Part shown: positions 56,606 through 64,000 of the stretch, in pieces
Layout of the letters: each line of letters begins with the position of its first letter
How positions within the stretch are numbered: position 1 is the first letter of the stretch
DNA from: a phage
Reading direction: 5' to 3' (one strand)
Sequence record: PZ534511.1
Length of the DNA stretch: 64,000 bases
Translations under genes and position numbers: made by a program
The notes under the pieces: model-generated
Told to the model about the DNA's origin: nothing
The model's database searches: none
The model's input: only the letters and a program-made list of their open reading frames with translations

Positions 56606-57578
56606 TTATATTCAAAGGTGGTCGCAACACCACCTTCCGCACCTTTACGTGCTGCTGCATGTTACCATGCAGAGTAGACTATATCACCACCCATTTCAGG
56701 GTGCTTCGCTTTTCGAGCGCCATAAGCTTGCGCCCTACTCCCTCTCGGGATAGTCGTTGAACTACATTACCAATCGTAATTGTTTGAAATATAGGTGTAA
56801 GTCTTACGGTCTTTTATTCCTTTAACAACACTAAAACTTACTCCCCACTTCTTAGCTATTTTATTGACACACAAGACCTTATCACTAAGATCCTCGCAGA
56901 TACCTATTATCTTGTGCTCACTTATCCGATTAGAGGTTGGCACTTTTCTAAAGTTAAACTCTTTAGAAATATCTGGGTATACTGAGCCATTCTTTATACC
57001 ACTTACAAGTGGTTGATTGACACCGAACATTTCACAAATGTCTTTTACCCTTGCGCCTTGTTCTAACAGCCTACATATTTCAAGAGCAGTGGCATCATCC
57101 AGGGACCTGTATTTATTGACATAGTCCTTTTTAAGTCCCATTTCATGAGCGTGATGTGTGTTTTCCTCAGGCGTTGTCCACTCAAGGTTCCATGCGGCGT
57201 TATTCAACTTATTACCATCTAGGTGGTTTACTTGAGTTTTCACGCTGGGATTGTCATTATCAACAAAAGTCATAGCAATCACTCTGTGAACGAGCACTTG
57301 GAACTTTTTACCGTCCTCGCACAAAGTTACCATAGCATAGCCAGTCTTTTTCTGCACATTAGGATGGAGGAATTTATTAGAATACAGACTGTAAATTCTG
57401 CCATCGTATGTAGCACAATAATGATTGTAGCCTAAAAAGCCTAAATTTTTCATTTCAAACATCTCCCTACTACAGGTTCGGAAGGGTAATTATAGCTGCT
57501 GATTGTCCGTTTAGCAATCGGATTTCCCAGCAATTAACGAAGTTATTCGACGTGCATTTCTGCACGAAGCCACTATCA
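56606..57578 (-). mobile_element. Group I intron 2 in terL, with HNH endonuclease ORF
   Basis: P AATTGCTGGGAAA (~57523-57535), Q AATCAGCAGC (~57495-57504, compensatory to P), R GTTCAACGACTATCC (~56748-56762), S GATATAGTC (~56677-56685); boundaries approximate. Confidence 0.65.
56767..57462 (-). CDS. HNH homing endonuclease (HNH_3-like), intron-encoded
   Basis: NHLDGNKLNNAAWNLEWTTPEEN motif; C-terminal HTH-like region; between Q and R elements of intron 2. Confidence 0.75.
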   Translation of the reverse strand: MFEMKNLGFLGYNHYCATYDGRIYSLYSNKFLHPNVQKKTGYAMVTLCEDGKKFQVLVHRVIAMTFVDNDNPSVKTQVNHLDGNKLNNAAWNLEWTTPEENTHHAHEMGLKKDYVNKYRSLDDATALEICRLLEQGARVKDICEMFGVNQPLVSGIKNGSVYPDISKEFNFRKVPTSNRISEHKIIGICEDLSDKVLCVNKIAKKWGVSFSVVKGIKDRKTYTYISNNYDW

Positions 57579-57902
57579 TTTAATGGTTGCGCCTATAAAC
57601 GAGAATGACAACGGTCTTGGCTTGATCTCAACACCCAGTCCGTTAACCGTGGTGTATTTCTCTATCAACTCTTCTTTAGAGTCTCCCCAGATAAATTCAC
57701 CGTCGCGTCGGATAAAATATCTTTTCTTACCGCATTTCTCCGGATCTGGATACCCTTCATCGTCCAACCACCATCTAACCAGTTTGGCAAGCATGTGTTC
57801 TGAATCGGGGTTACAGCTGATAACCATTCTTGATGGATACTTTGACTGAGATCGCAGACGAGACATCAGATAGTCTATCTGCTCCCATTCGAATTGTGTC
57901 GT
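57576..57902 (-). CDS. terL: Terminase large subunit, exon 2 (ATPase C-terminal part)
   Basis: Frame open from stop near 57903-57905: TTQFEWEQIDYLMSRLRSQSKYPSRMVISCNPD; exact 3' end (5' splice site) probably just upstream of 57579. Confidence 0.55.
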   Translation of the reverse strand, partial: TTQFEWEQIDYLMSRLRSQSKYPSRMVISCNPDSEHMLAKLVRWWLDDEGYPDPEKCGKKRYFIRRDGEFIWGDSKEELIEKYTTVNGLGVEIKPRPLSFSFIGATIK

Positions 57903-58782
57903 TTATGTTCGGGCAAGGTCGCTAGTCTTGCCCCGCCATTTTCAGGCAGCTGCATGTCTCCATGCAGACCAGACTATATCTTATGAATGTGTAAATACTC
58001 TGCCGCTCTAAGAATAGTTTCCTCATCCTCTTGGAAGAAACCTAAAGCTCTGTTGCATTTATCACAAAGCAACCCTCTTACAGCACCAGTTTTATGGTCA
58101 TGATCAACACAAAAGAAATCTCTATACCCTTGCGTCCTATACTCATCAAGGGATATTCTACAAATGGCACACTTATGATCTTGATCTGAGAGTAGACGAT
58201 AGTATTCATCTTTTGTTATGTGAAATTTCTTCTCAATCTGATAAAACTTTTCACACATCTTACACCTGTTCGTAACCAGATATACTTTACCATAGTCACG
58301 TTTTGTGTAAAAACTATCAGCGAGCATACTTTCATGACAAGATTTGCATTCAAAAAGTTCACCTTTCTTCAGCAAGTCTTGAATAAACAATGCTGCGTCA
58401 TCTCTCTTAACCATATTTTTGTTTTTACGAGATCCACCCTTCCTGTAGTACATATAGCATTCCTTGCATGTACCTGAGTATCCATCCTTGCTCTTAGATG
58501 ATAAAAAGAAATCATCAATAGGTAGAACTCTTTGGCAATCCATACATTTTTTAGTATTACACATTCACCCTCCCGTTTCGAATCGCTTGATTCTACGTCT
58601 TTCGACTAGTCGTTGAACGTTCATCCTCTCGGATGCTTCGCTGCGGATTATCTAAATTAACACACTGTTACCATACCTTCGATCTCTCTTCGAAGCCTCT
58701 ATCATGTTACCATGACAGGTTGGTGGTGTCAATAATAAAGATTTCCCCGCAATTAGGGAGGTTTTACGAGAGCTACAAATTA
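57903..58782 (-). mobile_element. Group I intron 1 in terL, with HNH endonuclease ORF
   Basis: Minus-strand core elements: P AATTGCGGGGAAA (~58742-58754), Q AATCCGCAGC (~58640-58649), R GTTCAACGACTAGTC (~58604-58618), S AAGATATAGTC (~57972-57982); boundaries approximate. Confidence 0.7.
57974..58564 (-). CDS. HNH endonuclease (endonuclease VII-like) with CxxC zinc fingers, intron-encoded
   Basis: CVDHDHKTGAVRGLLCDKCNRALG motif; several CxxC pairs; between R and S elements of intron 1. Confidence 0.75.
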   Translation of the reverse strand: MCNTKKCMDCQRVLPIDDFFLSSKSKDGYSGTCKECYMYYRKGGSRKNKNMVKRDDAALFIQDLLKKGELFECKSCHESMLADSFYTKRDYGKVYLVTNRCKMCEKFYQIEKKFHITKDEYYRLLSDQDHKCAICRISLDEYRTQGYRDFFCVDHDHKTGAVRGLLCDKCNRALGFFQEDEETILRAAEYLHIHKI

Positions 58783-59208
58783 ACCCTCATCGAAGCAAAC
58801 CATGGTATACTCAAGCCCTTGATGGTTAAGCTTATCTTGTACATACTCCATGTGGCAGTATTTTACAACAGCTCCCTTTTTGCTTCTATCCCACTTGCCG
58901 GTGTTCGGATCAAACCGTGGAAAAATGAACTTATGATCCTTCTCTCTGAACTTTGGCTTAATGTTTTCAGGCAGATCACTATAAATAGCTACTGCTTTAG
59001 GCCATAGTCCACCCTCACCTTCCAACTGTGGGGTTGTTCTTCGGAACATAACCACAGAGCTGTGGGGGTCATCAATAATTTTAAGTGGCATCAATTGCAA
59101 GAGGAACGACTTGCCAGACCCTGCGGCACCGCCGATTACCAAAATATCTGCATCGTTTTCAAGGATCATCTTCTGCTTTTCAGAACACGGTCCGTAAATC
59201 TTAGACAT
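58780..59208 (-). CDS. terL: Terminase large subunit, exon 1 (ATPase N-terminal part)
   Basis: Walker A GGAAGSGKS; Walker B MVCFDE just before stop at 58780-58782, followed by intron P element. Confidence 0.75.
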   Translation of the reverse strand: MSKIYGPCSEKQKMILENDADILVIGGAAGSGKSFLLQLMPLKIIDDPHSSVVMFRRTTPQLEGEGGLWPKAVAIYSDLPENIKPKFREKDHKFIFPRFDPNTGKWDRSKKGAVVKYCHMEYVQDKLNHQGLEYTMVCFDEG

Positions 59209-60311: not shown

Positions 60312-60388
60312 TGGTCTCCACGGAGTGATTCGAACACTCGACCTCCTGATCCCAAATCAGGCGCTCTACCAAGCTGAGCTACGCGGAG
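60312..60388 (-). tRNA. tRNA-Pro (anticodon UGG)
   Basis: Hand-folded cloverleaf: 7-bp acceptor CUCCGCG/CGUGGAG, T-loop GUUCGAAUC, anticodon loop UUUGGGA, encoded CCA. Confidence 0.7.
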
Positions 60389-60399
60389 TATTTATTATT

Positions 60400-60474
60400 T
60401 GGTGGCCCTGGGTGGAATTGAACCACCGTCTGGCGATTATGAGTCGCTTGCTTGAACCTTCCAGCTACAGGGCC
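60400..60474 (-). tRNA. tRNA-Met or Ile2 (anticodon CAU)
   Basis: Acceptor GGCCCUG/CAGGGCC, anticodon loop CUCAUAA, T-arm GGUGG-UUCAAUU-CCACC, encoded CCA. Confidence 0.65.
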
Positions 60475-60475
60475 A

Positions 60476-60551
60476 TGGTGCTGATAGCAGGACTCGAACC
60501 TGCAACCTATTGATTACAAATCAATTGCACTACCAATTGTGCTACATCAGC
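60476..60551 (-). tRNA. tRNA-Thr (anticodon UGU)
   Basis: Acceptor GCUGAUG, D-arm GCAC-AAUUGGUA-GUGC, anticodon loop UUUGUAA, T-loop UUCGAGU, CCA. Confidence 0.7.
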
Positions 60552-60556
60552 AAAAA

Positions 60557-60655
60557 GGTGCTAGGTGATGGAATCGAACCACCTATGTATTCAACGACTA
60601 CCTCGTCTATTTTCAGGATTAAAAATCCTCGCCCTTGCCAAAGGGCTTACCTAGC
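60557..60655 (-). tRNA. Atypical tRNA-like gene (about 99 nt; possible UUU anticodon; about 30-nt variable region)
   Basis: Perfect acceptor GCUAGGU/ACCUAGC, D-arm GCCC-UUUGGCAA-GGGC, T-arm GGUGG-UUCGAUU-CCAUC, but anticodon arm non-canonical and extra hairpin ACGAGGUAGUCGU; 3' CC only. Confidence 0.4.
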
Positions 60656-60753
60656 TCAGTATGTTGACCATGTTGCTAGTCGGCGATGACGACTGTAACA
60701 TTTGATAATCCGGTTCTGCTTCCGGCTTTCGCTTAATTACAAGGTCAACAATA

Positions 60754-60844
60754 TGGCTGAGGGTAATGGAATCGAACCATCATCGAGTCATCCTCAACGG
60801 GACGGTTTTCAAGACCGCTTGAGCACCATTGCTCCCTACCCTCA
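60754..60844 (-). tRNA. tRNA-Ser (anticodon UGA), long variable arm
   Basis: Acceptor UGAGGGU/ACCCUCA, anticodon loop CUUGAAA, long variable arm, T-loop UUCGAUU, CCA. Confidence 0.65.
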
Positions 60845-60958
60845 TTTATAAACAATACTGATAATGACACTGATTTTCGAGCAGTTAGTGACTAGTATAA
60901 ACGACGATAAATATCAATGCCATTATCTGTATGATTTATGCATTTAAAAATGTAAATT

Positions 60959-61045
60959 TGGTGGGGAGTGGTGGAGTCGAACCACCCGAGTCGCAATGAC
61001 AATAGATTTACAGTCTACACCGCTACCTCTACGGGATAACTCCCC
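60959..61045 (-). tRNA. tRNA-Tyr (anticodon GUA), long variable arm
   Basis: Acceptor GGGGAGU/ACUCCCC, anticodon loop CUGUAAA, T-arm GGUGG-UUCGACU-CCACC, CCA. Confidence 0.65.
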
Positions 61046-61049
61046 AATT

Positions 61050-61124
61050 TGGCACCCCGTACTGGACTCGAACCAGTGTCAACGGCTTAGAAGGCCGCTG
61101 CTTTATCCACTAAGCTAACAGGGC
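61050..61124 (-). tRNA. tRNA-Arg (anticodon UCU)
   Basis: Acceptor GCCCUGU/ACGGGGU (G-U pairs), D-arm GCUU-AGUGGAUAA-AGC, anticodon loop CUUCUAA, T-loop UUCGAGU, CCA. Confidence 0.65.
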
Positions 61125-61616: not shown

Positions 61617-61903
61617 GTTCGCCGCAGGGTGGTATTCCCTGCGACTTGTCCAGCGTCCTAGACCAGCAAGACCCAACAAGTGGGTTACCAGAGCCCATTA
61701 CCGCACTTTGGCTCGACCTTATTACAGGTTGGCTGGGGTCACATCGTCATGTGCTGGCTGCCCCTACCATTTTAAGTGTGGTGCACTATCAAGCCCTCTA
61801 AGGGGAACTCAGTCTTCTCCGAACCCTGTTTCAAAGCATCCGGAGATAAAGCCATCAAATTCATCTTTAAATTGGATATTCATCATGATACACGAAAACA
61901 ACC

Positions 61904-62222: not shown

Positions 62223-62432
62223 TCAACAGATTCCGGCCTTATCTCGCCTGTCTGCGTATTCTTTAATCGCAACCTCCTCTGCATTGGTGACTAAATCTTC
62301 AAAGTAACTCTCAAGCTCCTCGTCAATGTCAGGAAACCAACTCTTTTTCCTGTCAGTGTGAATCGCAGACTTGTTGAATTTATTACAGTTCTTTGCTACC
62401 GGATTATTCATTAATAGCCCCTCAGCGTTCAT
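62223..62432 (-). CDS. Hypothetical protein
   Basis: Track ORF, 69 aa, overlaps upstream gene stop. Confidence 0.4.
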   Translation of the reverse strand: MNAEGLLMNNPVAKNCNKFNKSAIHTDRKKSWFPDIDEELESYFEDLVTNAEEVAIKEYADRRDKAGIC

Positions 62433-63000
62433 AGTAAATCTTATTTAACATTACCTCATCCTTTGCAGAAAGAATACCGAGATATGCATCACCGAACCTG
62501 CCTGCAACAACCTCTACATGATACATCACTTCGTTAATATCGTCAAGAGTGATAACTGGATGACCGTATCTCTCTGAGTATTGTCTCAGAGTGCGATGTA
62601 GGGAATCATCATCGTAGGCAGACTTTTTAATATCACAAACACGACGAATAGCCTTGATGTCGAAAAACCCTGTGCGATACCAACCAAGAAAAAGGTTTCG
62701 TGCAGTGTCAACACCTACATCAACACCGTCAAGAACCTTATCTACAAGATAGCTGTCATCCTTTGGACCTGCTTCCTTAGTTCGAATGTAGTTGCCATCT
62801 TTTCCAGGTGACAGCTCCTTCTCATCACCAACCTGAATGCCATCATTTGGCGGTGTTAACCACTTATCCGGATGCTTACGATCACGAGCGTTAGAATGAT
62901 TACGCTGGAAACCTGGCTTCCACTTGAAAGTTTTCTCCATCTGTTCTTCATTCTGATAACGTTTTGCAATCTTTTCACGGTCATCTTTGCGTGGACTCAT
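62422..63000 (-). CDS. Hypothetical protein
   Basis: Track ORF, 192 aa; GGAGG RBS; downstream of iteron/AT-rich region. Confidence 0.45.
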   Translation of the reverse strand: MSPRKDDREKIAKRYQNEEQMEKTFKWKPGFQRNHSNARDRKHPDKWLTPPNDGIQVGDEKELSPGKDGNYIRTKEAGPKDDSYLVDKVLDGVDVGVDTARNLFLGWYRTGFFDIKAIRRVCDIKKSAYDDDSLHRTLRQYSERYGHPVITLDDINEVMYHVEVVAGRFGDAYLGILSAKDEVMLNKIYYER

Positions 63001-63359
63001 AGCTGCCTCCTCTTCAAGTTATAGAAAAACTCACTGTATCGCTTTGTAACGAGCTTTTCTATCAAACTGGTGCGATTGCCTTACCTGATATAGTTTATAT
63101 AGCTGTGGAGCGATTTAGGGGCCTTCTTGTCCGTTTCCACACATAAACTTCATCCAAGCTCGCGCGGGAGACTCTCAACCGACTCCTTCCGGCGCTGGCA
63201 AGCTTTCGTCGGTGGTCCACATCAGTGCTCGGCCTTTGGCCTGCGCTATCGCTTCGCTCCCACACATGTTAACAGACCTGCATGTATGCACTTCTGTTAT
63301 TGTGTGCACCAGAGAGGCCCGGCATCTCGCCCCTCGTAGGCGAGTGCCAATGAAGGGCC

Positions 63360-63500
63360 GACACTACCAATAGTAAGTAATAAATTTAAAACATGGTACT
63401 TAGGATCTAATATATTCTACATAAGTTAAGTATATGTACTTAGTACCATAAGTACTAGATCTTTTGTTTTTTATTATTTAGTTATTTTAGTTATATTCTT
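63360..63500. promoter_or_regulatory. AT-rich tract with short GTACT-type repeats next to iterons; origin/operator candidate
   Basis: Sharp drop in GC; repeats GGTACTTAGGATCT / GTACTTAGTACC / AGTACTAGATCT. Confidence 0.35.
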
Positions 63501-63504
63501 TATG

Positions 63505-63585
63505 TGTCCGTATCACGGACAGTTAGTGTCCGTATTACGGACAGATTTGTCCGCGTGACGGACAGTAGTGTCCGTATCACGGACA
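63505..63585. repeat. Four 17-bp palindromic iterons TGTCCGTATCACGGACA at 21-22 bp spacing
   Basis: Copies ~63505-63521, 63527-63543 (1 mismatch), 63548-63564 (3 mismatches in central spacer), 63569-63585; half-sites TGTCCG/CGGACA invariant. Confidence 0.8.
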
Positions 63586-63660
63586 GTTACTAACCTCTGT
63601 TCCAGAGCGAACATAAAACATACGAATCCTTATAGTACAGATATTTAAGTTTTTACTGGT

Positions 63661-63957
63661 CTAACCAGTTGTTGACATTCGAATAACTTCTTCTGGTGGC
63701 AAAACTTTGGAAAATGTGCATCTTTTACCTCTCCCTTGTGTGGATATTTCAACCACTCCCGCACATTCTAAAGTTTTAACGCACGCTGCTGCTTTTGTTT
63801 TCTTTATTCCAACATCTGCTGCAATTTTCCTTGTGCTGGGTGTGAAGCGTGAACTTCCTCCAAGCTTATACCAGTTGTGCAGGTAGCAGTATACGATCTT
63901 GTCATACAAGTCAAGAACAACAACCTCCCCAGTTGTGTCATTCAAAACTTTTGACAT
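63661..63957 (-). CDS. Winged-helix DNA-binding regulator candidate
   Basis: STRKIAADVGIKKTKAAACVKTLECAGVV resembles an HTH recognition region; iterons lie just downstream. Confidence 0.4.
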   Translation of the reverse strand: MSKVLNDTTGEVVVLDLYDKIVYCYLHNWYKLGGSSRFTPSTRKIAADVGIKKTKAAACVKTLECAGVVEISTQGRGKRCTFSKVLPPEEVIRMSTTG

Positions 63958-64000
63958 AGACAGTATTTCAAGGGGGACTTTAAGATATAGCAGCTTATCC

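Follow-up and report, generated by a model that had tools for sequence, protein, structure and literature searches.

A candidate lambda/iteron-like replication-origin module beside a wHTH gene in rV5-like coliphages

We analysed a stretch of phage DNA of 64,000 nt (the window), which comes from an rV5-like coliphage of Vequintavirus. Few coliphages are isolated as often as the rV5-like phages (PMC8594841), which have been studied for therapy and biocontrol in the literature that we found. The 1.1 kb around the palindrome array described here has 97-99.5% identity to phage records in GenBank, 118 in number and nearly all from Vequintavirus. Eighteen records named 'Campylobacter phage' (MG0656xx) are about 98% identical to the rV5-like locus and are probably mislabelled or contaminating E. 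coli phages. For the ranking of GC content and duplex stability over a whole genome, a composite full genome of about 135.6 kb was made from the window and LR597647.

All genes around the array lie on the - strand. Along this strand, a polynucleotide kinase gene, a phosphoesterase gene and a gene for a small winged helix-turn-helix (wHTH) protein form an early operon, which is followed by 660 bp of non-coding DNA (63001-63660). Beyond the ORF at 62422-63000, the - strand carries small ORFs, a tRNA cluster, spanin genes and the large terminase gene, which is located 4 kb downstream of the array; no small terminase gene is annotated. The features of the locus are as follows:

63661-64000, - strand: wHTH gene (its 3' 340 nt), the last gene of the early polynucleotide kinase/phosphoesterase operon
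63586-63660, no strand: spacer between the wHTH stop codon and the array, poorly conserved
63505-63585, no strand: four phased dyad sites, conserved palindromes, presumed sites of wHTH dimers
63366-63504, no strand: AT-rich tract of about 21% GC, the least stable duplex, putative DNA-unwinding element
63100-63365, probably + strand: structured RNA-like element, GC-rich and conserved, with covariation (ends approximate)
62422-63000, - strand: genus-specific ORF for a hypothetical protein of 192 aa, which marks the module boundary and is not a proven part of the module

Several other observations were made downstream of the module. The large terminase gene is fragmented in the window (56767-59208), with pieces at 58780-59208 and 57576-57866 and further pieces downstream, and the pieces are split by EndoVII/HNH-type homing-endonuclease ORFs at 57974-58564 and 56767-57462. 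In the relative pangalan, this gene is uninterrupted (1548 nt). Seven tRNA genes are located on the - strand at 60312-61124; the 99-nt 'tRNA-???' at 60557-60655 has a 4-nt anticodon according to ARAGORN and is given as Lys or 'OTHER' in the annotation of relatives. Between small ORFs, a second conserved and relatively GC-rich non-coding stretch (61680-61903; nucleotide diversity 0.056) shows no sequence relation to the 63100-63365 element.

Palindrome array and AT-rich tract

An earlier note on this DNA had reported four repeated palindromes at 21-22-bp spacing, and these are real. Four perfect 17-bp palindromes, TGTCCG-N5-CGGACA, are located at 63505-63521, 63527-63543, 63548-63564 and 63569-63585. 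Their start-to-start spacing is 22, 21 and 21 bp, equal to two DNA helical turns, and their half-sites are 11 bp apart. Only 0.08 such palindromes are expected by chance per window, and none of 100 shuffles reached four. With up to two mismatches allowed, neither the window nor the other 72 kb of a relative's genome contained a further meaningful site. The half-sites are invariant in the window, as had been described, but the variation is not confined to the central 3 nt, since site 3 differs across the whole 5-nt centre (CGTGA versus TATCA/TATTA in the other sites). An isolated half-site proposed at about 63128 is a chance occurrence, with TGTCCG present 16 times in the window against 18 expected. 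Also, the array does adjoin the wHTH gene, but it lies 75 bp downstream of the stop codon and not upstream of the gene.

The palindromes are conserved, with the four sites and their spacing kept in every relative compared. Across 11 relatives with protein identity down to 87%, the nucleotide diversity of the array is 0.030, which is the level of first and second codon positions, compared with 0.12-0.17 at third codon positions of the flanking genes. The spacer after the wHTH stop codon is as diverse as third codon positions (0.13), and both the AT-rich tract and the GC-rich stretch show a value of 0.056. Among relatives, the sites vary only in their centres and by T>C at position 3 of the half-site. 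Judged from these diversities, the dyad array is under strong purifying selection.

The palindromes could also act at the RNA level and not as DNA sites, as a tandem row of four hairpins in the 3' UTR of the wHTH mRNA with a role in stability, processing or protein binding. The array does lie just past the stop codon, each unit can form a stem of 6-7 bp with a loop of 3-5 nt, and most of the variation falls in the would-be loops. However, the four stems are identical, no relative shows a compensatory change, and the only stem change (T>C) breaks a pair in the mRNA sense, while the spacing fits two DNA helical turns. At a metagenomic locus with a remote homologue of the wHTH protein (L015), the dyad centre is 1 nt, so that no hairpin loop is possible. 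We regard this reading as extremely unlikely.

The AT-rich tract beside the array had been noted as well and is an extreme feature of the genome. In the composite genome, 63366-63505 has the lowest GC content of all 140-bp windows (20.7%). Nearest-neighbour energies put the duplex stability of the tract below that of any other segment at window sizes of 50, 100 and 150 bp, with a deviation of about 5 sd from the mean. GTAC occurs four times within 81 bp of the tract, a number that is reached but not exceeded elsewhere in the genome, and the tract also holds an 11-nt inverted repeat (63393-63403/63439-63449) and GATC at 63404 and 63458. A perfect oriC-type 13-mer, GATCTnTTnTTTT, is located at 63458-63470 on the + strand and occurs once in the genome against 0.115 expected.

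In terms of host initiator sites, no DnaA box with up to one mismatch was found in 63001-63660, and the nearest ones, at 62738 and 63739, are both inside genes. A DnaA-dependent origin was rejected, as there is no box cluster and the excess of near-boxes across the window is not local to the array. This excess is twofold: 39 9-mers within one mismatch of the DnaA box TTATCCACA occur in the window versus 19.7 expected, 29 of the 39 on the + strand and without clustering near the array. The cumulative GC skew has its global minimum at about 65.0 kb, at the divergent transcription point and 1.4 kb from the locus. The nearness of this minimum leans toward an origin but, since GC skew tracks the direction of transcription in rV5-like phages, it is not independent evidence. 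The rV5 genome paper reported the same skew switch, and its authors sought the origin by skew analysis, by which it could not be defined. Elsewhere in LR597647, other repeat-rich and partly AT-rich non-coding regions are found at about 103-106 kb and 115-117 kb, which hold GGCCCCGCCAGGTTGCA-type repeats and inverted and direct repeats of 18-20 nt. They could be further regulatory elements or extra origins.

An operator or a roadblock is the main rival reading of the array, which we consider less probable than an origin. The wHTH protein would be a transcription regulator, a repressor or an activator, that acts through four cooperative dimer sites on a promoter in the AT-rich tract. Alternatively, it would be a roadblock between convergent units, the polynucleotide kinase-phosphoesterase-wHTH operon (-) and the RNA gene (+). 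The 11-bp half-site spacing suits HTH dimers. No intrinsic terminator was found between the early operon and the RNA gene, which a roadblock would suit; hairpins do follow the wHTH stop codon, but they lack conservation and do not qualify as terminators. A promoter for such an operator is difficult to place. A weak candidate (CGGACA as -35, a 15-nt spacer and TAAAAT as -10) overlaps 63505-63521, the dyad site closest to the AT-rich tract, but no sigma-70 promoter with acceptable spacing was detected in 63330-63670; a phage-specific promoter may exist here. The 33 promoters predicted in the rV5 genome paper, almost all starting with TTGAC, include none in this intergenic region. Also, the site is absent elsewhere in the genome, so that the protein would not be a global regulator, and the rV5 array lies downstream of the gene of its own regulator. 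An operator would further leave the conserved 140-bp AT-rich tract and the parallel with plasmid iterons unexplained.

The wHTH protein and its module in other phages

The wHTH gene described in the earlier note is real, but the start giving a 98-aa product is an internal ATG. In relatives, the gene is 351 nt long and encodes 116 aa and, judged from them, the start codon lies about 11 nt past the end of the window. Against Pfam HTH_36 (PF13730), the protein scores 22.8 bits (E 8e-5), below the 25-bit gathering cut-off, and close relatives carry precomputed weak PF13730 matches. The single sequence scores 24.9 bits against DUF6945 (PF22182), for which the cut-off is 28 bits, and the family profile matches 4RO3 with an E-value of 3e-11. 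The protein also matches PHROG 12838, which is labelled 'replication initiation protein', and, weakly, the initiator PHROGs 270, 428 and 8102, as well as PHROGs 9088 and 22534. The same PHROG families are matched, with E-values down to 3e-12, by the O-like/DnaD-like Rep of the satellite-like plasmids described below.

When 1.84 billion representative proteins were searched exhaustively with HMMER, the wHTH family itself and only 13 weak matches were returned, and the nine of these that were checked are mostly HTH_36/DUF6945 proteins. A word-index protein search and an IMG/VR scan found no distant relatives, and tblastn with the protein gave matches in Vequintavirus only. The protein has no match to Phage_rep_O (PF04492), no similarity to terminase small subunits was found, and it does not have the combination of a RepA_N N-terminal domain and a host-specific C-terminal domain that defines the RepA_N class.

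An AF2 model built with the weak HMMER matches in the alignment is a confident wHTH fold (pLDDT 82); a model from four near-identical sequences (pLDDT 42) was discarded. Among the solved structures that also cover the N-terminal part of the model, with 80-104 residues aligned, are 4RO3 and the N-terminal domains of RepA_N initiators (4PQL, 4PT7, 4PTA and 5KBJ) and of DnaD; the RepA_N and DnaD domains match most of the chain. The CRP-, LexA-, MarR- and CodY-type wHTH domains are also good structural matches, with similar scores for the CRP, LexA and MarR types, and this is in favour of an operator. Because regulators score like initiator domains, the function of the protein is not decided by its fold alone. 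GenBank annotation is inconsistent between 'regulator' and 'replication initiation protein', and the many records that name the gene 'putative transcriptional regulator' would again suit an operator. In terms of family matches, we favour the assignment of the protein to an initiator-type wHTH lineage. We consider it very probable that the protein binds the dyads.

The order of a small wHTH gene, dyad sites and an AT/GATC tract recurs in the sister-genus phages PVP-SE1 and Mydo and at metagenomic loci with remote homologues, and the dyad sequence is different in each relative that carries the module. For a cognate pair of protein and site, the dyad sequence is expected to shift with the protein while the geometry remains constant, as is seen here. 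Mydo gp177 (105 aa) is homologous to the wHTH protein (hhalign 97.6%, E 2.6e-12) and scores 28.7 bits against DUF6945, above the 28-bit cut-off. Its dyad, TGCTCA-N3-TGAGCA, adjoins a tract of 16% GC with GATC repeats. PVP-SE1 gp99 is a weaker homologue candidate than Mydo gp177; in this phage, two ATTCCC-N4-GGGAAT dyads 24 bp apart adjoin a tract of 19% GC, also with GATC repeats. These tracts of 16-19% GC are the lowest in GC of each locus. Both modules are located exactly at a divergent strand switch with the dyads upstream of the wHTH gene. In terms of an operator, this is a divergent promoter region in which the protein may autoregulate, and such a position, expected of an autorepressor operator, argues against an origin.

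Among the metagenomic loci, L015 and L018 carry dyads that repeat every 23 bp next to AT-rich DNA, and no arrays were seen at the loci of the remote homologues P0014 and P0016 (L019 and L020). At L018, a gene at 251-1075 with TROVE (Ro-like) and NAPRTase Pfam matches adjoins the wHTH homologue and the dyad/AT region, and NAPRTase is also found near the PVP-SE1 and Mydo modules.

Structured RNA-like element and satellite-like plasmids

In the earlier note, a conserved non-coding element of about 265 bp (63100-63365) was missed. This element has 57-62% GC and sits between the AT-rich tract and the ORF at 62422-63000. A coding role was rejected, as it shows no conserved ORF and no 3-periodicity. 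Rfam searches at gathering and permissive thresholds gave nothing real for the element, and none of its plasmid copies had an Rfam match. A match to rli43 was rejected, with 22.7 bits versus a gathering score of 100 and a span (63282-63578) that covers only the 3' end of the element and the AT-rich tract.

The predicted structure has a core helix, in which 63178-63183 is paired with 63208-63213, and a 3' hairpin, in which 63321-63331 is paired with 63339-63348. When phage and plasmid copies are aligned, pairing is kept in 99.6% of cells, versus 91% in shuffles and 27-55% in slid controls, and eight pairs show double changes versus 0-1 in slid controls; this alignment holds two deep clades only and is also the one from which the structure was derived. 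One pair runs through an A-U, G-U, G-C series within the rV5 clade. Within this clade alone, no double changes were found, and the folding z-score of -1.6 is uninformative. The pairing pattern suggests that 63100-63365 is a conserved structured RNA-like element. On the - strand, the share of paired cells drops to 87.6%, and a terminator-like hairpin on the + strand forms the end of most plasmid copies. For these two reasons, the sense strand is probably +, pointing to the AT-rich tract and the array. An extended -10 promoter candidate for this RNA, TGATATAGT at 63086-63094, was rejected because it is not conserved in other rV5-like phages.

The RNA element was matched at 85% identity, in two blocks, by four circular E. 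coli plasmids of about 13 kb and by two metagenome contigs. Such plasmids occur in 4 of 5426 complete genomes; a 19-mer scan of genome contigs gave only chance matches in unrelated GC-rich genomes. Satellite-like examples are NZ_CP020521 (13,689 bp), CP148565 and NZ_CP043822. The plasmids encode a major capsid protein, homologues of the rV5 baseplate and tape-measure proteins (25-50% amino acid identity) and an O-like/DnaD-like Rep, full length at 288-303 aa. In five plasmid or contig variants, 4-5 iterons with a dyad core come after the RNA element, spaced 23, 23 and 43 bp apart. Their core sequence varies from plasmid to plasmid, each of which has an O-like Rep gene, and the iteron region lies more than 1 kb from the start of the Rep operon. 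We infer that this iteron region is the only plausible origin of the plasmids.

On the one hand, the satellite-like plasmids show the same order as rV5, namely the RNA element, an AT/GATC segment, 4-5 phased dyads and a nearby HTH_36/O-like gene. On the other hand, they differ in the spacing of their iterons, which are unrelated to TGTCCG, and in their full-length Rep. They lack both the TGTCCG-N5-CGGACA palindromes and the wHTH protein. Their RNA gene also differs from the rV5 element by extra hairpin modules and, in most cases, by a terminator-like hairpin at its end. The structured RNA is the only nucleotide-level sequence common to the rV5-like phages and the plasmids of about 13 kb. From their gene content and this common element, the plasmids look like plasmid-borne satellites of rV5-like phages. 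We found no paper on them in the literature.

A non-coding element that is common to a phage and its putative satellites and lies beside the array recalls shared cos or pac sites. Accordingly, the palindromes and the AT-rich tract could mark the start of headful packaging, with the wHTH protein as a recognition factor similar to a small terminase. The genomes of rV5-like phages are circularly permuted and headful-packaged with no pac site known, and the large terminase gene lies nearby on the same strand with no annotated small terminase. However, the plasmids share only the RNA element with the phages: a search for TGTCCG-N5-CGGACA found no sites in them, and each has its own iterons. The wHTH protein does not resemble terminase small subunits, and the stems of the shared element co-vary, which points to a folded nucleic acid, most likely RNA, rather than a site that acts only as duplex. 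We consider a pac site very unlikely.

Replication origin or operator

The earlier note had offered both an operator and an origin. Either may hold, and the evidence leans to an origin; the anatomy had been described incompletely. We propose, with a probability of about one half, that 63100-64011 is a lambda/iteron-like replication-origin module of the rV5-like phages. An origin is favoured because the array is unique in the genome, because it adjoins an extreme and conserved tract that is prone to unwinding, because the protein is of an initiator-type lineage, and because the order of RNA element, AT/GATC segment and phased dyads matches that of autonomously replicating plasmids.

In the proposed mechanism, dimers of the early 116-aa wHTH protein would bind the four dyads, and the two-turn spacing would align these dimers along the same face of the helix. 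The nucleoprotein complex formed in this way would stress and open the adjacent 140-bp AT-rich tract, and replication would start here, with the opened tract giving entry to the T7-type primase-helicase, which the phage itself encodes, and to the polymerase. The structured RNA gene on the other flank would be transcribed toward the AT-rich tract and would belong to the module as it does in the plasmid replicons. This RNA may activate or prime initiation, or it may act in trans. A three-part origin, in which the structured RNA is an integral component in cis or in trans and also a handle for satellites, is a speculative extension that we put forward only tentatively and consider unlikely.

Several points argue against an origin. 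The protein consists of a wHTH domain only, with no domain that would recruit a helicase, and there is no DnaA-box cluster. In large lytic phages, replication may start at several origins or be driven by recombination, and LR597647 has further non-coding regions rich in AT and in repeats near 104 and 116 kb. Also, the assignment of the plasmid iteron region as an origin is itself indirect. On the other hand, an origin and autoregulation can coexist, as many Rep proteins also autoregulate.

In terms of known systems, ori-lambda is the closest model. It contains four initiator sites, which are inverted repeats bound by O dimers, beside an AT-rich tract that is unwound (PMC7466680). The rV5 array likewise has four inverted-repeat sites, with predicted binding, directly flanking an AT-rich tract, and the wHTH is broadly of one lineage with O, in that the O-like PHROG families are matched by the plasmid Rep, which shares PHROG matches with the rV5 protein. 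However, the O gene of lambda contains the origin, and the rV5 array instead lies past the stop codon, and the rV5 AT-rich tract is about three times longer. The lambda O protein has about 300 aa, and its C-terminal domain recruits P-DnaB. In contrast, the much shorter rV5 protein lacks a C-terminal domain for the recruitment of a helicase loader and any Phage_rep_O match, and rV5 encodes a primase-helicase of its own. The rV5 module is thus not a member of the ori-lambda family.

The rV5 module also resembles the origins of iteron plasmids (RK2, P1, F and R6K, and RepA_N plasmids such as pSK41) in its repeats of 17-22 bp phased at about 22 bp, its adjacent AT-rich element, its 13-mer-like GATC motifs and its adjacent initiator-type gene. 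The modelled wHTH fold resembles the N-terminal domains of RepA_N initiators. In RK2, P1, F and R6K, the classical iterons are direct repeats that lack symmetry and bind Rep as a monomer, and DnaA boxes are required by many of these origins, whereas the rV5 units are perfect palindromes with no DnaA-box cluster. In ColE1 (RNA II), T4 (oriF/oriG) and lambda (oop and transcriptional activation), an RNA is read toward or beside the unwinding element. How transcription and replication are linked in lambda is the subject of PMC3017604. The rV5 RNA showed no sequence or Rfam relation to ColE1 RNA II, T4 oriF/oriG or lambda oop, and, unlike these origin transcripts, the RNA of most satellite variants has its own terminator before the iterons.

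We found no paper on the palindrome, DUF6945, an rV5 origin or rV5 satellites, and the rV5-type origin is unmapped. With a defined origin and initiator, the control of replication could be tested in these phages, and a cis element would be available for engineering or for resistance of the titration type. An origin would also explain why the same gene is annotated both as a 'regulator' and as a 'replication initiation protein'. If the three-part origin is true, the RNA would be a handle that couples the iteron replicon of the satellite, or its packaging, to the helper phage, and it would represent a new class of RNA as well as a new type of link between helper and satellite in strictly lytic coliphages. 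The presence of a common RNA-like element, supported by covariation, in capsid-encoding plasmids points to unrecognised satellites of a plasmid type in a group of strictly lytic phages, and this may matter more than the origin itself.
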